Assembly: GCA_903902855.1 (NCBI GenBank)
Contig: CAIUWK010000068.1
Location: forward strand, 74,558-138,557
Direction of reading: 5' to 3'
DNA length: 64,000 bases
Source: an uncultured Geobacter sp.
GTDB lineage: Bacteria > Desulfobacterota > Desulfuromonadia > Geobacterales > CAIOGM01
In this document: positions 1,626 through 63,281 of the stretch, piece by piece
How the letters are laid out: the number at the start of each line of letters is the position of its first letter
How positions within the stretch are numbered: position 1 is the first letter of the stretch
Notes under the pieces: generated by a model
The model's input: the letters and a program-made list of their open reading frames with translations, nothing else
The model's database searches: none
Told to the model about the DNA's origin: nothing
Position numbers and translations under genes: made by a program

Positions 1626-1792
1626 TAGTAACTACTCAGGTCGATAGGCTGAATGTTGAAGGTTGAAGAGTATCAGGAAAACCATCGCAGAATAAAGAAA
1701 AGCGACCCATACGAGACGGGTTTAACCTTCAGCCTTCAGTCTTCAGTATTCAGCCTCACTACCCGATACGGGTTTAACCTTCAGCCTCACGC
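1626..1792. repeat. Heptamer-arm hairpin element, copy A (with partial duplication of the right half)
   Basis: GTAACTACTCAGG + degenerate CTGAA/TTGAAGG repeats + core (TATCAGGAAAACC..GCAGAATAAAG..CCATACGAGACGGGTTTAA) + CCTTCAGCCTTCAGTCTTCAG. A second ATACGGGTTTAACCTTCAGCC follows. The element abuts the hrpB stop codon. Confidence 0.8.
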
Positions 1793-20211: not shown

Positions 20212-21381
20212 ATGAACACCCCCTATTGTGCCGGATTACCGGAGCTTCCCACGGTCTCAGCCGACGCCGTAAAACTGTTTCATCGTGCGATAACGAGTGT
20301 GACGGCGCAAGTGGCCGCCCATCTTGAGAGCCGGCCTGATCTGGACATGTTCACCGGCGGTAATTCGCCGGATCTGCTCCGCGGCATGCTGCGACACCAG
20401 GCGAGGTTCATGCTGATCATCTTCACCGTGGACTCCCCCCAGCAGATTGCATCGTTTCTCCTCTGGAACCATCAGACATCCCAGGCTCAGGGGTTCTCCT
20501 CAGAGTTCTTTGCCCTGCTGCTTGACGCCTGGCGAACCGTCGTCCGTGACCGGTTCACCACCCATGGAGAGGGAGGTGAGCTCCCGTCATTCTATGACTG
20601 GCTGGCTCGATGCCACGAAACAAGCAGCGTTTCCCCCGGTGAAGGGATATATCCTGCTGTTTCCCTCACGCATAATGTCAAGGGGGTGCAACTCCCCTTT
20701 CTCTGGCTGCTGCTGCAAGGAAATTTCAGCAGCTGCCTGCAGTTCAGCAGTTCGTTGATTGAAACCTTGGATGACCTGAGACAGTTTTACCTGAAAGTAA
20801 TCTGGCCTGTATTCTACCGGATAGGTGAGCTCTGGAGTTCCGGCCTGATCTCCGTCGCCGAAGAGCACTTGGCCACGAATCTGGTCAAACGGGTCATGCC
20901 GGTCCTCCTTTCCCGGTTCACCATGAACAGGGTGACTCGTGGAAAGGCCTTGGTTTCCACATCCCCCAATGAGCACCATGAGATCGGCGCCAGGATGGTC
21001 GCCGATTTTTTGGAACTGGATGGCTGGGACGTCATCTACCTGGGGGCCAATATTCCTTCCTGGGCACTTCTTGACATGGTCCAGCGAGAGAAACCTTTCC
21101 TCATCGCCCTCTCCGCTGCCACCGAGATAAACCTCGGCAATATCAGGTACATTATCGACATGATCAGGGGTGACCGACGGCTTCGAGAGACAAAAATCAT
21201 GGTTGGCGGTTACGCGTTCTGTCATAGCTGGCTGCATTGGCAGCAGATCGGCGCCGATGGCCATGCTCCCGATGCCCAGGGGGGCGCCCTGATCGCAGCG
21301 GAGTGGTGGTCGGCGCGGCAGGGTGACAAATCACAGGATGAAAGTAACCACTCAGGTTTGAGACTGAAGGCTGAAGGTTAA
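20212..21381 (+). CDS. Cobalamin (B12)-binding domain protein, CarH-like sensor module without a DNA-binding domain
   Basis: AAGGAG precedes the ATG at 20212 (the ORF opens at 20143). Four-helix cap motif W-x9-EH (ELWSSGLISVAEEHLAT) and Rossmann B12 motif ExHxxG (NEHHEIGARMV...GWDVIYLG). The N-terminal ~200 aa are unassigned. Confidence 0.75.
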   Translation: MNTPYCAGLPELPTVSADAVKLFHRAITSVTAQVAAHLESRPDLDMFTGGNSPDLLRGMLRHQARFMLIIFTVDSPQQIASFLLWNHQTSQAQGFSSEFFALLLDAWRTVVRDRFTTHGEGGELPSFYDWLARCHETSSVSPGEGIYPAVSLTHNVKGVQLPFLWLLLQGNFSSCLQFSSSLIETLDDLRQFYLKVIWPVFYRIGELWSSGLISVAEEHLATNLVKRVMPVLLSRFTMNRVTRGKALVSTSPNEHHEIGARMVADFLELDGWDVIYLGANIPSWALLDMVQREKPFLIALSAATEINLGNIRYIIDMIRGDRRLRETKIMVGGYAFCHSWLHWQQIGADGHAPDAQGGALIAAEWWSARQGDKSQDESNHSGLRLKAEG

Positions 21382-21403
21382 ACCCGTCAACCTGAGTAGT
21401 TAC
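21344..21403. repeat. Heptamer-arm hairpin element, short copy E (inverted relative to copies A-D)
   Basis: GTAACCACTCAGGTT..GACTGAAGGCTGAAGGTTAAACCCGTC..AACCTGAGTAGTTAC, with terminal inverted repeats. It overlaps the last 12 codons and the stop of the B12-binding gene. Confidence 0.75.
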
Positions 21404-28532: not shown

Positions 28533-28582
28533 CGTCCCGTCCGCCCCGTCCGCCCCGCGTCCCGTCCGCCCCGTCCGCCCGC
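28533..28582. repeat. C-rich tandem array (CCGTCCGCC-like units)
   Basis: CGTCCCGTCCGCCCCGTCCGCCCCGCGTCCCGTCCGCCCCGTCCGCCCGC. Confidence 0.7.
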
Positions 28583-31011: not shown

Positions 31012-31109
31012 GTAGGGTGGCGGGTCGTAGGGTGGCTGGTCGGGGGTGGCGGGTGGCGGGTCGGGCGGGTGGCGGGTCGGGGTGGCGGGTCGCGGGGTGG
31101 CGGGTCGGG
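31012..31109. repeat. G-rich tandem array (GGTGGCGGGTCG-like units, about 8 copies)
   Basis: GTAGGGTGGCGGGTCGTAGGGTGGCTGGTCGGGGGTGGCGGGTGGCGGGTCGGGCGGGTGGCGGGTCGGGGTGGCGGGTCGCGGGGTGGCGGGTCGGG. Confidence 0.8.
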
Positions 31110-31195: not shown

Positions 31196-31350
31196 CGACA
31201 AATTCGATCAACCAAAACCAAGTATCAAATGGCATTATTGCGGCAAAACAGGCTGTTTCACCCAACTTCGGCGCGCCGAAGATTGGCGGAACCTACCGGA
31301 AAACAACAATACACCTTTTAATAATTCGAAATATGCGCAGTATCATTTAG
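31196..31350. repeat. Conserved non-coding module, copy 1 (homologous to 41640-41791)
   Basis: Alignable by eye with few substitutions: GGCAAAACAGGCYGTTTYACCCAACTTCGGC(GC/AT)GCCGAAGATYGGCGNAACCTACCGGAA..AACAATACACCTTTTAATAAT(T)CGAAATATGCGC..ATCATTTAG. Confidence 0.8.
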
Positions 31351-31514
31351 CTGGAAAACAAGGAATCACTGCTGAGGCATCATCATTAGTTGGCTGGGGT
31401 GAGACGCGAATACGTGTACCCATAGCGGCGGATACCCATGAAACTGTGGTCAAGCAGGGAAAGAAAAAAGGAGAAGCGGTGGAGAGGATAATCGTGGGTC
31501 TGTTCATAGATGCA

Positions 31515-32208: not shown

Positions 32209-32257
32209 GGGGTGGAGGGTCAGACTTGAGGGGTGGAGGGTGGAGGGTCAGACTTGG
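32209..32257. repeat. G-rich direct repeat GGGGTGGAGGGTCAGACTTG (two copies; a third at 28386-28405)
   Basis: GGGGTGGAGGGTCAGACTTG A GGGGTGGAGGGTGGAGGGTCAGACTTGG. Position 28386 reads GGGGTGGAGGGTCAGGCTTG. Confidence 0.75.
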
Positions 32258-32371
32258 GTCCTGTTGTTTGTGTGTGTGGGGGGGGGTGGAGGTAGAGTAG
32301 GAAAGAGGGCGGTGCCTGGCTTGTGTCCTCTCATTGTTGGGGGACGGACCTCCATGTCCAGAGCAAGGAGT

Positions 32372-37095: not shown

Positions 37096-37218
37096 GTAAC
37101 TCAGGCTGAAGGCTGAAGAGTATGAGGAAAACCTCTGCAAGATCAATAAAGGTGCCCCATACAAGATGGGTTTAACCTTCAGCCTTCAGTCTTCAGCCTC
37201 ATTACTTGAGTAGTTACC
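37096..37218. repeat. Heptamer-arm hairpin element, copy B (best preserved)
   Basis: GTAACTCAGG CTGAAGGCTGAAG - core (AGTATGAGGAAAACCTCTGCAAGATCAATAAAGGTGCCCCATACAAGATGGGTTTAA) - CCTTCAGCCTTCAGTCTTCAGCC..CTTGAGTAGTTACC. Lies between the Rrf2 stop and the ccoN start. Confidence 0.85.
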
Positions 37219-38288: not shown

Positions 38289-40004
<1,716 letters not shown>

Positions 40005-40024
40005 TAAATTACCTCGGTTTGATT

Positions 40025-40224
40025 CCGGGACCAAGGACCGGGAACCAGTGGAAAAGCTGGGACCGGGGACCGGGAACCGGTAAGTGCGGTTATTGTTCTG
40101 TACGATTCACAATAGGGAAGTATTGGTGCTTCATGATGTCGTATGCTGACGTATCGACCGTTTATTGTTTCATTCCGGCCTCATACGGGTTTCCTGGTCC
40201 CAGGTCCCAGGTCACCGGTCCCCG
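40025..40224. repeat. Hairpin element variant with GGGACCN/NGGTCCC heptamer arms
   Basis: Left arm CCGGGACCAAGGACCGGGAACC..GGGACCGGGGACCGGGAACCGG. Right arm, after ..CCTCATACGGGTTTCC, is TGGTCCCAGGTCCCAGGTCACCGGTCCCCG. The right arm overlaps the last codons of ispG. Confidence 0.75.
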
Positions 40225-41273
40225 TTCACAGCCTTCAACACTTCCGCCACCAGGGCGTCGGCCATCTCGGCCTCGGGAACTTTCCGGATGATCTCGCCGT
40301 GACGGAAGAGGAGCCCCTCCCCTTTTCCCCCGGCAATACCGAAATCGGCCTCCCTGGCCTCGCCGGGTCCGTTCACCCCGCACCCCATCACCGCCACGGT
40401 GACGGGACTCTTCACCCCCCTCAACCGCTCCTCAACCTCGTTGGCCACATGAATGAGATCGATCTGGCAGCGGCCGCAGGTGGGGCAGGAGACGAAGTTG
40501 ACCCCATGCTGCCGGAGGTTAAGGGCTTTGAGGATCTCGAACCCCACCCGGACCTCGTCCACGGGGTCGCCGGTGAGAGAGACCCGCATGGTGTCGCCTA
40601 TACCGTCAGCCAAAAGGATTCCCAGCCCCACGGAAGATTTAATGGTGCCGGAGAAGATGGTTCCAGCCTCGGTAATGCCGATATGCAGTGGGTAATCGAC
40701 CTTCTCTGCCAGAAGACGGTATGCCGCCACGGTCTTCATGACATCCGACGCCTTGAGAGAAACCTTGATCCGGTCATACCCCAACTCTTCCAGAATCCGG
40801 ACATGCCCCAAGGCCGACTCCACCATGGCCTCCGCCGTGGGATGACCGTACTTGGCCAGGAGTTCCTTCTCCAGGGAGCCGGCATTGACCCCAATCCGGA
40901 TGGGCACCTGACGCTCACGGGCGGCGGCCACCACCTCGGCCACCTTCCATTGATCACCGATGTTGCCGGGGTTGAGCCGAAGCCCGTCGATCCCTGCGGC
41001 CAGCACCGTGAGGGCCAGCTTGTAGTCGAAGTGGATGTCGGCAATGACCGGGATGGGGCTCTGCGCCTTGATCCGTCCCAGAGCTTCAGCCGCCTCCATG
41101 TCCAGCACGGCGCAGCGGACCAGCTCACAGCCGGCCTGGGCCAGGGAACTGATCTGGGCCATGGTGGCTGCCACATCCCGGGTGTCGGTGTTACACATGG
41201 ACTGGACGGAGATGGGTGCCCCGCCGCCGACGGCTATGGTTCCGATAGTTATCTGTTTCGTCGCTTTTCTCAT
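40212..41273 (-). CDS. ispG: 4-hydroxy-3-methylbut-2-en-1-yl diphosphate synthase (flavodoxin)
   Basis: Start taken at MRKATKQITIG. The PISVQSM..NT motif and C-terminal CPTCGRC...GC..NGPGE cluster are present. Confidence 0.95.
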   Translation of the reverse strand: MRKATKQITIGTIAVGGGAPISVQSMCNTDTRDVAATMAQISSLAQAGCELVRCAVLDMEAAEALGRIKAQSPIPVIADIHFDYKLALTVLAAGIDGLRLNPGNIGDQWKVAEVVAAARERQVPIRIGVNAGSLEKELLAKYGHPTAEAMVESALGHVRILEELGYDRIKVSLKASDVMKTVAAYRLLAEKVDYPLHIGITEAGTIFSGTIKSSVGLGILLADGIGDTMRVSLTGDPVDEVRVGFEILKALNLRQHGVNFVSCPTCGRCQIDLIHVANEVEERLRGVKSPVTVAVMGCGVNGPGEAREADFGIAGGKGEGLLFRHGEIIRKVPEAEMADALVAEVLKAVNGDR

Positions 41274-41649: not shown

Positions 41650-41791
41650 ATCAACAATCCAACGACACCAAACGGCTTTTTCAGGCAAAACAGGCCGTTT
41701 TACCCAACTTCGGCATGCCGAAGATCGGCGTAACCTACCGGAAGATAACAATACACCTTTTAATAATCGAAATATGCGCGGCATCATTTAG
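41640..41791. repeat. Conserved non-coding module, copy 2 (homologous to 31196-31350)
   Basis: See copy 1. Contains the 16-bp perfect palindrome CTTCGGCATGCCGAAG (41708-41723). Confidence 0.8.
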
Positions 41792-41856
41792 GGCAGAAAT
41801 TGAATATCAGCCGAAACGAGAAGAAACAAGCTGGTGGAGATTACGCTCACTCCTCC

Positions 41857-41896: not shown

Positions 41897-42155
41897 CCTG
41901 GCCAGAGCTGAATTTATGGTGACGCAAGCCGACGAGGATCAGGATTTGTATCGATATGCCTGACCATGCCGCCACCTCTCAGGAATCAATTGATGAGGGG
42001 GTACTTTAGCAGCAAAACCCTTCACTGGCAACCAAATCTTTTAATAAGAAAAATATCCTGATAAATAATTCGGATACGCAAAAGAACACGGGACCGCAGG
42101 GCTTCCAAGGAGCCCCAGACCACCAGGTTCCCAAGTCCCCCTTTGACTCAACTTT

Positions 42156-45724: not shown

Positions 45725-45863
45725 GGTAACTTCAGGTTGATGCGCTGAAGGCTGAAGACCATCAGGAAAACCACTGCAAAATCAGTAAAGGCAATTTATC
45801 CGAGACGGGTTCAACCTTCAGCCTTCAGTCTTCAGTCTTCAGTCTTAATACCTGAGAAGTTAC
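45725..45863. repeat. Heptamer-arm hairpin element, copy C
   Basis: GGTAACTTCAGG..CTGAAGGCTGAAG - core - CCTTCAGCCTTCAGTCTTCAGTCTTCAGTCTT..CCTGAGAAGTTAC. Lies between the EVE-gene stop and the FKBP start. Confidence 0.85.
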
Positions 45864-47630: not shown

Positions 47631-47739
47631 GGTAACTTCAGGCTGAAGGCTATCAGAAAAAGATCTGCAAAATCAATAAATACGGCTTATACAAGACGGG
47701 GTCAACCTTCAGTCTTCAGCCTTAATACCTGCGTAGTTC
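47631..47739. repeat. Heptamer-arm hairpin element, copy D
   Basis: GGTAACTTCAGGCTGAAGGC - core (TATCAGAAAAAGATCTGCAAAATCAATAAA..TATACAAGACGGGGTCAA) - CCTTCAGTCTTCAGCCTT..CCTGCGTAGTTC. Abuts the stop of the NlpC/P60 gene. Confidence 0.8.
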
Positions 47740-48539
47740 TAAAAATACCGCCGGGCGCCGATGAAGCGCTTCTCGAAATAGGACTCATCCACCCGCGACA
47801 CCTTGATATCGTCACCCCGCCGGGGGGCATGAACGAAGCGACCGTCACCCACGTAGATCCCCACATGGTTGATCCTGTTGACGGAATCGCCGAAAAAAAC
47901 CAGATCACCGTCCCGCAGCTCCCCCTTGCCGATGGTCTGGCCGGTCTGGAACTGCTCACCGGAAGTGCGGGGGATGTTGACCCCGCAGAGGTTGAAGACC
48001 GCCCGGGCAAAGCCGCTGCAGTCCATGCCATCCACCACGGTGGTGCCACCCCACCGATAGGGTATCCCCACGAACCGTTCGGCGGTCCTTGCGGCAATCC
48101 CCCCCATCTCCCGGTCACCTCTGGGGATGATGCATTCCTCTCCCTTTTTCGGCTTTTTATCCGGCTTTCCCACCGGTTTTTCCGGTTTATCCGGTTTATC
48201 CGATTTTTCGGCGGGGGTGGCGCAAAACGGGGGAGCGATATAGTACGCCCCGATGACCTTCTCCTGCACCAGTTTTTCCGCCCCCCTTCGGGCCGCATCC
48301 TTTCTGGGGAAGTCGCCGAACCGGACGGCGTAGACTCCGTTCTCCTTCTTGAAGTAAAAGGCCTCCACCCCCTTGCTCTGAAGGGCAGTGGTGAGCCGCT
48401 CGGCGTTCTTCACCTCGGCAAAGGCCCCCACCTGGATGGAAAAGCCGATGCGGGTGACCCCCTGGGCCGGCAGCGCGAAGGCGCAACCTGACCAGAGGAG
48501 CGAAGCGAGGGTAAGGAGTGCAGAGAGTATGCGGCGCAT
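47739..48539 (-). CDS. Lipoprotein with SPOR domain, Lys/Pro-rich linker and NlpC/P60 (C40) peptidase domain
   Basis: 266 aa. Lipobox LWSGC, SPOR (FSIQVGAF...YAVRFGDF), KPDKPEKPVGKPDKKPKK linker, and NlpC/P60 catalytic MDCSGF...H...H. Confidence 0.85.
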   Translation of the reverse strand: MRRILSALLTLASLLWSGCAFALPAQGVTRIGFSIQVGAFAEVKNAERLTTALQSKGVEAFYFKKENGVYAVRFGDFPRKDAARRGAEKLVQEKVIGAYYIAPPFCATPAEKSDKPDKPEKPVGKPDKKPKKGEECIIPRGDREMGGIAARTAERFVGIPYRWGGTTVVDGMDCSGFARAVFNLCGVNIPRTSGEQFQTGQTIGKGELRDGDLVFFGDSVNRINHVGIYVGDGRFVHAPRRGDDIKVSRVDESYFEKRFIGARRYF

Positions 48540-61313: not shown

Positions 61314-63281
61314 ATGGCCATTCGGAAAAAAATTGGATTTGCCTGGAACATGATCAGCCTCGTCGGAATAGTTCTGGCGGTCACCGCTGCCGGTCTCACC
61401 GTCGCGTTTACGGCCTATGAGATGATGGCCGAAGCGGAACATGCCTATCTGGGACTCATGACGTTTTTTGTGTTCCCGGCCATGATGGTCGCCGGATTGA
61501 TCCTGGTTCCCGTCGGAGCATGGCTGAAGCGTAACGATCTGCGGAAATCCGCTCTGGAAGGGAAGATATCCCTTGATGAGGAGATACAGGCATTCCCGAC
61601 CCTTAACTTGAACGACCCGCACAAACGCCAAATGTTCATTTTCTTCATCATGGCCACGATCATCTTTGTCATTATCATGGCAATCGCCTCCATCAAGGGT
61701 TTCGAATTCACCGAGTCGACCACCTTCTGCGGCACTCTCTGCCACCCGGTCATGACTCCCGAGTATACGGCTTGGCAAAACTCTCCCCATGCCAAGGTCA
61801 GGTGCGTTGAATGCCACGTCGGCCCCGGAGCGGCATGGTACGTCAAGGCCAAGGTATCCGGAATGAAACAATTGTATGCGGTCATATTCCATACCTACCC
61901 GGAAACCATCGAGACCCCCATCGATAACCTCCGGCCGGCGCGGGAAACCTGTGAGCACTGTCACTGGCCCGATAAATTCTCCGTTGCCCGCCAGAAAATC
62001 TTCTACCACTACGCTCCCGATGAGGACAACACCCCTCGCAAGATCGACATGCTGATCCATATCGGCGGTTCACCGTTGAAAGCCACGACCAACGGTATCC
62101 ACTGGCATATCGGTTCAGAGGTTACCTATATTGCCCGGGACCAGAAACGTACCTCTATCTCCTATATTGCGGTCAAGGACAAGAGCGGCAAGGTGACCGA
62201 ATTCATGGATACCGAGAAGCCTCTGACCAAGGATGAGATCGCCAAAGCGAATAAGCGGTTGATGGACTGCACCGACTGTCACAACCGGCCGACCCATATC
62301 TATAACTCGCCCAGTGAGGGGATGGACCTGAATTTTGTCTCAAACCTCGTCGACCGAAAGCTCCCCTTCATAAAGAAGGTCTCCGTTGAACTGCTCAACC
62401 GCCCCTACAAGACCAAGGAAGAGGGGTTTGCCACCATCGCCACTGGGATTCCGGCCTACTACGCCAAAAATTATCCGAAGATTGCCCAGGAAAAGGGGGA
62501 AGCCATCAACGCTGCCGTGGTTCAAGTGAAGGATATCTATGAGCGGAACTTTTTCCCGGCAATGAAGGTCAAGTGGAGCACCTATCCGAATAATATCGGC
62601 CATTTCTATACGCCGGGTTGTTTCCGGTGCCATGATGACAAGCACAAGTCGGCCGATGGCAAGGTTATCTCCAAGAGCTGCGAACTCTGTCACGAAGTCC
62701 TCGGCCAGATCCAGGAAAACATCCCGCCTGGAACGGTGGTCAACCAGTTCGTTCATCCCGTGGACATCGGCGACGATCTCTTCGAGACTAACTGTAGCGA
62801 CTGCCATGCTGCCGGCGGCCACGATGGTACCGCCAAAGGTGCCACGACGACACTCAAGCCGACAGGACATGCGGCCGCCGTTGGCGTGACCTTGAGTTCT
62901 CAGAAGAACCAGGAAGCGGCAAAGGCCATGGTAAAGAGTGCCCTGGCATATCTGAAGGCGAACGGCAAGGCTAAGACCCTGCTTGAAATCAGCGAAGCCA
63001 AAGGACAATTTGTCAAAGGGGAACAGTACCTTTTTGCCATCGATCTGCAGGGACGAATGCTTGCCCATGGCGCAAATCCGACTCTGGTAGGGAAGAGCAT
63101 GATTGAATTCAAGGATCCTGACGGGAAGTATTTCTTTAAGGATTTTATCAGCGTAGCCCGGAAGGGAAATGGCTGGGTCACCTATAAATGGATCAATCCC
63201 GTAACCAGGAAGACCGAGCCGAAGTCTTCTTACGTGGAGATGGCAGAAGATTTCATTATCGGGTGCGGTATTTATCGCTAG
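61314..63281 (+). CDS. Inner-membrane heptahaem NapC/NirT-family cytochrome (ImcH-like) with C-terminal sCache_2-like domain
   Basis: Start taken at MAIRKKIGF (AGGAG 8 nt upstream). Three TM segments. Haem motifs CGTLCH (CX3CH), CVECH, CEHCH, CTDCH, CFRCH, CELCH, CSDCH. The C-terminal ~130 aa match the single-Cache pattern (..GEQYLFAIDLQGRMLAHGANP.LVGKS...KDPDGKYF......GWVTYKW.NP.T...E.K.SYV......IIGCGIY). Confidence 0.85.
   Translation: MAIRKKIGFAWNMISLVGIVLAVTAAGLTVAFTAYEMMAEAEHAYLGLMTFFVFPAMMVAGLILVPVGAWLKRNDLRKSALEGKISLDEEIQAFPTLNLNDPHKRQMFIFFIMATIIFVIIMAIASIKGFEFTESTTFCGTLCHPVMTPEYTAWQNSPHAKVRCVECHVGPGAAWYVKAKVSGMKQLYAVIFHTYPETIETPIDNLRPARETCEHCHWPDKFSVARQKIFYHYAPDEDNTPRKIDMLIHIGGSPLKATTNGIHWHIGSEVTYIARDQKRTSISYIAVKDKSGKVTEFMDTEKPLTKDEIAKANKRLMDCTDCHNRPTHIYNSPSEGMDLNFVSNLVDRKLPFIKKVSVELLNRPYKTKEEGFATIATGIPAYYAKNYPKIAQEKGEAINAAVVQVKDIYERNFFPAMKVKWSTYPNNIGHFYTPGCFRCHDDKHKSADGKVISKSCELCHEVLGQIQENIPPGTVVNQFVHPVDIGDDLFETNCSDCHAAGGHDGTAKGATTTLKPTGHAAAVGVTLSSQKNQEAAKAMVKSALAYLKANGKAKTLLEISEAKGQFVKGEQYLFAIDLQGRMLAHGANPTLVGKSMIEFKDPDGKYFFKDFISVARKGNGWVTYKWINPVTRKTEPKSSYVEMAEDFIIGCGIYR

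Follow-up and report, generated by a model that had tools for sequence, protein, structure and literature searches.

Arrays of G-rich heptanucleotides were described by Rehm et al. (2015, PMC4692102), who reported GGGAATC and GGGGAYT repeats in Xanthomonas and Nostoc with a preference for four units, and 70-75 convergent inverted pairs in each Xanthomonas genome. The repeats on the coding strand lie within 50 bp of a stop codon or overlap it, those on the non-coding strand lie within 50 bp upstream of ORFs, and the type of repeat is kept between related species (PMC4692102). As summarised in PMC4679880, long simple-sequence repeats in many bacterial genomes are reported to consist most often of heptanucleotide units, for which polymerase slippage is the proposed cause. 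A repeat of this kind was also catalogued in Geobacter metallireducens as Gmet_H4, which consists of four tandem GGGACCG units, occurs in 49 intergenic or intragenic copies and was regarded in the annotation as a putative global regulatory element (Aklujkar et al. 2009, PMC2700814, Fig. S2). Its consensus, ...GGGACC(G/A)GGAAAACC, is a canonical G-quadruplex (G4) motif, and the alignment has a tail GG(G/T)AAAA(C)C and an outer flank ..GGCC (PMC2700814). The convergent layout of inverted heptamer arrays is thus already known, from Geobacter (Aklujkar 2009) and from Xanthomonas and Nostoc (Rehm 2015). When the published Gmet_H4 alignment was analyzed, all 11 pairs of copies lying no more than 440 nt apart were in plus-then-minus order (P = 5e-4). 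Among the 47 copies assessed out of 49, 25 were solo and 18 had TAA, TAG or TGA as their first three columns (P ~1e-12).

A second kind of element is relevant for comparison. The REP and BIME elements of enterobacteria are imperfect palindromes found in operon spacers and at 3' ends, where they stabilise the upstream mRNA, and those close to a stop codon can lower translation.

The locus studied here is the spacer between ispG and proS in the window, by which we mean the whole 64,000-nt stretch of DNA that was analyzed, which comes from an uncultured member of the Geobacteraceae. Both genes are on the minus strand and the spacer is 207 nt long (Table 1). The identity of IspG follows from an identical 353-aa protein on metagenome contigs with Pfam GcpE, and that of ProS from Pfam tRNA-synt_2b, tRNA_edit and HGTP_anticodon on identical contigs. 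On balance, we consider it probable that the spacer holds a locus of the G-rich heptanucleotide repeat class, a convergent pair of arrays kept alike by replication slippage that acts as a REP-like intercistronic stem-loop.

Table 1 Features of the ispG-proS region and copies of the CTGAAGG hairpin family in the window
Feature	Position	Strand	Basis or remark
ispG (GcpE) CDS	40212-41273	minus	translation
ispG stop codon TGA	40212-40214	minus	inside predicted outer stem
5' arm (mRNA sense), GGGGACC GGTGACC TGGGACC TGGGACC	40196-40223	minus	sequence; TRF period 7
Loop-proximal A-rich tail AGGAAACCC (plus strand GGGTTTCCT)	40187-40195	minus	
Interior/loop, about 105 nt, AT-richer, unique sequence	40082-40186	minus	
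3' arm inner block, GGGACCG GGGACCG GGAACCG GT	40059-40081	plus	non-coding strand G-rich
3' arm outer block, GGGACCA AGGACCG GGAACCA GT	40027-40049	plus	direct repeat D2
proS Shine-Dalgarno-like CGAGG	40012-40016	minus	GAGGT invariant in five orthologous spacers
proS CDS	38289-40004	minus	ORF list; ATG 40002-40004
CTGAAGG/CCTTCAG full copies	1646-1756, 37103-37199, 45745-45846, 47636-47723		
CTGAAGG-family partial copies	21350-21388, 1764-1788		

The 5' arm (on the plus strand CC TGGTCCC AGGTCCC AGGTCAC CGGTCCC C, 40193-40223) covers the end of ispG. The gene closes with AAC GGG GAC CGG TGA, so that the heptamer array supplies its four final codons (NGDR), as the preliminary description had stated, and the stop codon is carried by the second unit, GGTGACC. 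The 3' arm is split into two blocks, the inner of which runs into the tail GGTAAGTG. Read in the mRNA sense, the C-rich blocks are CCGGTTCCCGGTCCCCGGTCCCAG (40081-40057) and CTGGTTCCCGGTCCTTGGTCCC (40049-40027), followed by GGAATCAAACCGAGGTAATTTA and the proS ATG, which lies 23 nt downstream of the outer block; at proS, ATGCGTTA(T/C) is kept across the orthologues.

The hexamer GGGACC/GGTCCC occurs six times in 211 nt here, where 0.13 occurrences would be predicted from its frequency in the remainder of the window (Poisson P = 5e-9), and the spacer is the one locus with GGGACCN arrays in the 64 kb. The stretch at 42081-42135 that had been reported as related has GGGACC and GGTTCCC once each, is free of tandem arrays and is not a related element. 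On the metagenome contigs with the exact IspG the spacer is identical save for one SNP at 40050, and no length polymorphism of the arrays was found among four near-identical contigs. BLAST found no paralogue of the focal interior in the window or in the fetched loci; an exact 15-nt match between 61858-61872 and interior positions 83-97 (E = 0.09) is probably due to chance. The region 39950-40300 had no Rfam match at E<=10, and at gathering score the whole window gave two tRNAs and nothing else.

Other repeats were also seen in the window. A direct repeat of about 135 bp (31240-31360 and 41690-41800, about 87 % identical) contains the palindrome AACTTCGGCGCGCCGAAG and could be a shared regulatory region or sRNA. 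The 880-nt gap upstream of ispG holds one of its copies, which is part of a 150-aa ORF; this ORF lacks a Pfam match and may be spurious. Short tandem arrays were found at 48173-48206 (CCGGTTTAT x3.8) and at 28533-28580 (CCCGTCCGC x5, for which TRF also scores a 25-nt unit x1.9).

When the intergenic RNA was folded in silico (ViennaRNA), 29 arm-arm pairs were predicted between the arrays at 40027-40081 and the facing array at 40196-40223, with an arm duplex of -57 kcal/mol. In the MFE structure the 5' arm pairs with 40039-40075. The inner block pairs with 40192-40210 and the outer block with 40213-40224. The spacer folds better than its dinucleotide shuffles (z = -3.5 to -4.0). Because of the GGGACC excess, the predicted arm pairing and the better-than-shuffle fold, the observation of inverted GGGACCN arrays that are able to form a long hairpin is real, and in this respect the preliminary description was right. 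Sequestration of the proS Shine-Dalgarno sequence was also considered; it is paired with the outermost array unit in the window fold and unpaired in the orthologous locus L125, and we make no claim for it.

The element belongs to the class to which Gmet_H4 belongs. Four units are present in the 5' arm and 3 + 3 in the 3' arm, compared with the three to four GGGACC(G/A) units of each Gmet_H4 array, and the A-rich tail is present beside both arms (AGGAAACCC and GGTAAGTG). Unit, number of units per array, occurrence in the Geobacteraceae, frequent contact with a stop codon, the loop-side tail GG(G/T/A)AAA(A)CC and the outer flank are alike, and many Gmet_H4 copies are likewise paired convergently (plus/minus) at distances of 40-440 nt. 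However, the units of the Gmet_H4 consensus follow a 7-6-7-7 pattern, the ispG-proS spacer of G. metallireducens itself is 11 nt long and does not contain the element, and the focal locus differs in its split 3' arm and in the 5' unit mutated to GGTGACC, which provides the stop codon. The repeats of Rehm et al. are likewise heptamers with a G3+ tract in arrays of about four units that form convergent pairs, and the focal arrays are placed as those are, one over the ispG stop and one shortly before proS; their unit is GGGNATC or GGGGAYT instead of GGGACCN and their hosts are from another phylum. Rehm et al. (2015) emphasised G4 formation and not a hairpin, whereas the focal locus has no canonical four-tract G4 motif. 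A solo array of about 12 GGGTGGC/GGGTCGN units was observed elsewhere in the window (31015-31109), on the non-coding strand directly upstream of a minus-strand ATG, in agreement with the placement that Rehm et al. described; together with a solo GGGTGGA array at 32210-32260, this part of the window includes several canonical G4 motifs.

With REP and BIME elements the locus shares membership in a multicopy extragenic class and a predicted stem-loop between co-directional genes whose stem starts at the stop codon. It differs from them in that its arms are tandem heptamers, it has no unique palindrome and its loop is long and variable; the GTAG-headed palindrome of 20-40 nt that is typical of REP/BIME is absent from the focal spacer.

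A genome scan was carried out with the pattern GGACCNGGGACCNGGAAA, for which many matches were coding coincidences (for example the Walker-A motif GPGTGKT and a WTWDQE motif). Among the matches listed, GGGACC(C/G) arrays were found in Xanthomonadaceae (with the same layout), Desulfuromonadales, Acidobacteriota and others. The 119 loci among these matches included 38 convergent, no divergent and 2 same-strand pairs and 33 solo arrays. The partner arms, which were outside the search pattern, have the tail NG(N)AAAAGC toward the loop in the 38 unrelated pairs among the matches listed. Since an A-rich tail is general in such arrays, the GGGTTT noted beside the arm in the preliminary description is a generic tail of the class. 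The minimal form is seen in L085, (GGGACCG)3 GTAAAACC / GGTTTTCC (CGGTCCC)4. In a Geobacter MAG (L105, 1900-1975), (GGGACCG)4 GGAAAAGC is followed 12 nt later by (TTCACCA)3, upstream of a cobyric-acid-synthase-like start.

The preliminary description had interpreted the spacer as a variant of the CTGAAGG/CCTTCAG hairpins of the same window in which both arms had been replaced together, the core had been kept and the hairpin shape was under selection. Members of that family have a conserved 56-nt interior (..ATCAGGAAAACC..GCAAAATCAATAAAG..CATACGAGACGGGTTTAA) and outer inverted repeats GTAAC(T/C)ACTCAGG (GTAACnACTCAGG); the family has no Rfam match and resembles a MITE or a group of small structured RNAs. 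When metagenomes were scanned with the family interior and the arms were left unspecified, six further true copies were obtained from JGI metagenome Ga0114951 (L133, L135, L147, L152, L153 and L161), the first nearly identical to the copy at 45745. All 10 copies that bear the interior, four from the window and six from the metagenome, have CTGAAGG/CCTTCAG arms. A profile of these 10 copies (nhmmer) recovered four full and two partial copies in the window and no match at 40000-40250 (E<=10, filters off with --max). The interiors therefore show no detectable homology, which speaks against an exchange of arms in a CTGAAGG element. The outer repeat is also absent from the focal flanks, and the focal arms are GGGACCN and not CTGAAGG/CCTTCAG.

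Several points can be named on the other side. The gross architecture is alike, as had been claimed: convergent heptamer arrays, an A-rich inner tail, a loop and an intergenic position. The same orientation relative to transcription holds for at least the 37103-37199 copy, the left inner end of the family, CAGGAAAACC, equals the Gmet_H4 tail, and the arms match each other within every element of the window. The retained core signature that had been claimed was not confirmed in its literal form: ATACNNGGGTTT occurs in no copy, and a search with up to one mismatch gave one unrelated 1-mismatch match where 2.2 were expected. CATACGGGTTT is present (40182-40192), and the only string common to the focal element and the family is the exact 8-mer AAACCCGT, the reverse complement of part of the CATAC..GGGTTT signature proposed earlier. 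It is located 2 nt past the last 5'-arm heptamer on the mRNA strand, at equal offset from the 5' arm in both, and it overlaps the A-rich tail. Its significance is borderline (p = 0.0014 as a single test, ~0.03 after 22 tests); the family has a 5-nt insert (ATACGAGACGGGTTT) that the focal element does not have, and the orthologous hairpins lack AAACCCGT. In G. metallireducens, the 'class 3' MTYCTGA heptamer pairs also resemble the focal element in their convergent arrays, A-rich inner tail and intergenic position. The focal element and the CTGAAGG elements share an architectural class but belong to different families.

Orthologous ispG-proS loci (L124-L131, L162 and L163, all from other members of the Geobacteraceae) were compared. 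The closest named IspG proteins share 83-85 % identity with IspG of the window. In L125 (IspG 90 %), the array at the ispG end is (GGGACCN)3, the tail G(G)TAA gives the stop codon, the interior is 41-50 nt long and the arrays before proS are of the type TTTACCGGTCCC.., and the same layout was found in L127 (the cultured Geomobilimonas luticola, 84 %) and L130 (84 %). In L131 (84 %), the 5' arm is (CCGGAAA)3 and the 3' arm is GGTCCC-like, and the two do not pair (z = -0.9). An array at the ispG end with a partner before proS is thus present in L125, L127, L130 and L131, and the orthologues have three units at the ispG end. The C-terminus of IspG is array-encoded in several lineages (GDRGPGTR, GNRGSGTG, DRGPGTGDQ). 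L126 (88 %) has the 5' array alone, followed by a PhdYeFM-PIN module and a REP-like hairpin. L124 (94 %), L128 (93 %) and L162 (93 %) have GTAG-headed GC-rich palindromes and no GGGACCN heptamers, while the spacer is plain in L163 (Geobacter sp. AOG1, 83 %) and in L129 (G. metallireducens, 84 %, 11 nt).

The GTAG-headed REP-like hairpins (e.g. CGTAGGGGCGAACGGCGTTCGCCCC) were located at 2260-2365 in L124, 2260-2330 and 3200-3283 in L128, 1890-1960 and 2650-2713 in L126 and 2370-2402 in L162, and in L126 and L128 they occur alongside the inserted PhdYeFM-PIN toxin-antitoxin pair. The REP-like sequence of these relatives is absent from the whole 64-kb window. In L162, the end of ispG (2235-2275) reads GTGAATG GTGAAGG GTGAATC GTGAAAG, another period-7 run at the position of the GGGACCN array of the window.

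In a five-way alignment of the spacers, the arms are kept across genera as GGGACCN and the interiors are divergent; the focal interior could be aligned with the 41-50 nt interiors of the orthologues over about 25 nt beside the 3' arm only. The two-block 3' arm and its flank are common to the window and L125, and this common flank and arm substructure indicates that the two loci are related by descent. RNAalifold on the five spacers gave 21 arm pairs, 0 compensatory changes and a covariation term of +2.76. All arm variants break pairs, and neither the variable seventh base of the unit nor the variant units (GGTGACC, GGAACC) are matched between the arms. The covariation on the scale of a whole stem that had been proposed is not supported by these data. 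The expected match between left and right arms, which holds throughout the window, fails in L131. Since there is no covariation and the arms are lost or diverged elsewhere, the complementarity of the arms is best explained by the presence of one repeat in inverted orientation and not by selection for pairing. The hairpin is also dispensable because the arms of L131 do not pair, L126 lacks the 3' arm and roughly every second copy in G. metallireducens is solo. What stays constant is the stop-codon array, which is more persistent than the hairpin. On the IspG tree the array-bearing loci are patchy and the sisters L162 and L163 have no GGGACCN arrays; with such a scattered distribution, an ancient origin with losses and repeated gain are both possible.

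The reading that we favour is as follows. Two GGGACCN arrays form a convergent pair, the coding-strand one over the ispG stop and the non-coding one before proS, each ending toward the loop in the A-rich tail GG(A/T)AAA. Each arm would evolve independently as point mutations occur and units are added or lost, probably by replication slippage. The pair would be transcribed within a single ispG-proS message; co-transcription is plausible because no promoter-like and no sense-strand terminator-like site was found in the spacer (the only terminator-like site in the scan was weak and antisense) and the gap in G. metallireducens is only 11 nt. This message should fold in vivo into a stem of about 29 bp, with interruptions, in which the ispG stop codon would be buried; a ribosome ending ispG would have to open the stem. 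By analogy with REP and BIME elements, we infer that the stem-loop may block 3'-5' decay or provide a site for processing, and may partly uncouple the expression of ispG and proS. The presence of REP-like palindromes in the same spacer of sister lineages is a parallel that fits either functional equivalence or a merely permissive site.

It is unlikely that the locus is a neutral by-product, with heptanucleotide repeats born by slippage persisting harmlessly at gene ends and a hairpin that has no role. Such an origin agrees with the abundance of heptanucleotides among long simple-sequence repeats and the slippage proposed as their cause (PMC4679880), with the lack of covariation and the dispensable arms, and with the fact that G. 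metallireducens copes with an 11-nt spacer. However, orientation is strictly convergent (38 versus 0 among the matches listed), the stop codon is at a fixed distance at the start of 18 of 47 G. metallireducens copies, the tails are conserved, and the arms are kept across genera while the interiors are randomised. Convergence, stop-codon distance, tails and arm retention point to constraint or to a directed mechanism of origin.

We give little probability to the explanation that the arrays form G-quadruplexes in DNA or RNA and that these, rather than the hairpin, affect transcription or transcript ends. In its favour, every unit carries a G3-4 tract, the Gmet_H4 consensus is G4-capable, the class prefers four units, GGGAATC repeats have CD evidence, and transcript starts and stops are commoner at G4-capable repeats (Rehm 2015, PMC4692102). 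At the focal locus this explanation is weaker because neither strand has a canonical four-tract motif (G3+N1-7 x4, 40001-40240). The sense arm has three G3+ tracts and the antisense arm three close and two distant ones, the orthologues likewise have three units at the ispG end, and the complementary C-rich arm nearby favours a duplex.

It is about as improbable that a MITE- or REP-like, non-autonomous mobile element entered the spacer on separate occasions in several lineages. The arrays are patchy on the IspG tree with sister taxa that have none, the class is multicopy and dispersed, and the spacer of relatives does take up REP-like elements and the PhdYeFM-PIN module. Nevertheless, no target-site duplication was found at the focal element, the interior is conserved neither in sequence nor in length, the class has no known transposase link, the flank and arm substructure shared with L125 argue for descent, and the four near-identical contigs have no length polymorphism. 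The short direct repeats D7 and D8 were considered as a target-site duplication and ruled out, as the element does not lie between them.

Still less probable is the view of the arrays as putative DNA sites for a nucleoid or global regulator (IHF/HU-type, as speculated by Aklujkar et al.) or as a cruciform site. The annotation of putative global regulatory elements by the authors of the G. metallireducens genome (PMC2700814), the regular spacing of the units and the A/T-rich centre are consistent with it. Against it, a 7-bp period mismatches the helical repeat, the ends of coding sequences tolerate arrays, and the number of units varies among orthologues.

A slim chance is also left for a modular organisation of Geobacteraceae hairpins, in which a constant loop-side motif (AGGAAA(A)CC / AAACCCGT) is combined with interchangeable heptamer arms (GGGACCN, CTGAAGG or MTYCTGA). 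The constant motif may be recognised by a shared factor or made by a shared mechanism, and the arms may have a fixed polarity, with the G-rich or array strand first on both strands and never the reverse. If true, this polarity would point to a dedicated repeat-building process, such as snap-back synthesis, and not to plain slippage. The joint replacement of both arms in a CTGAAGG element under selection for hairpin shape is, given the comparisons with the family and the orthologues described above, very improbable.

The focal locus is thus one more example of a class that was catalogued in 2009 and 2015 and never explained. The comparison shows that the arms are complementary through common origin rather than through compensatory changes. 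Convergent polarity and an A-rich inner tail are shared across phyla, and any mechanism must explain both, together with the position of the arrays on stop codons. For the Geobacteraceae, the ispG-proS spacer represents a natural variant series with a hairpin, a half element, REP-like palindromes, a toxin-antitoxin insertion or nothing. The series includes the cultured Geomobilimonas luticola and could be used to test the effects of the repeat on an essential two-gene operon.
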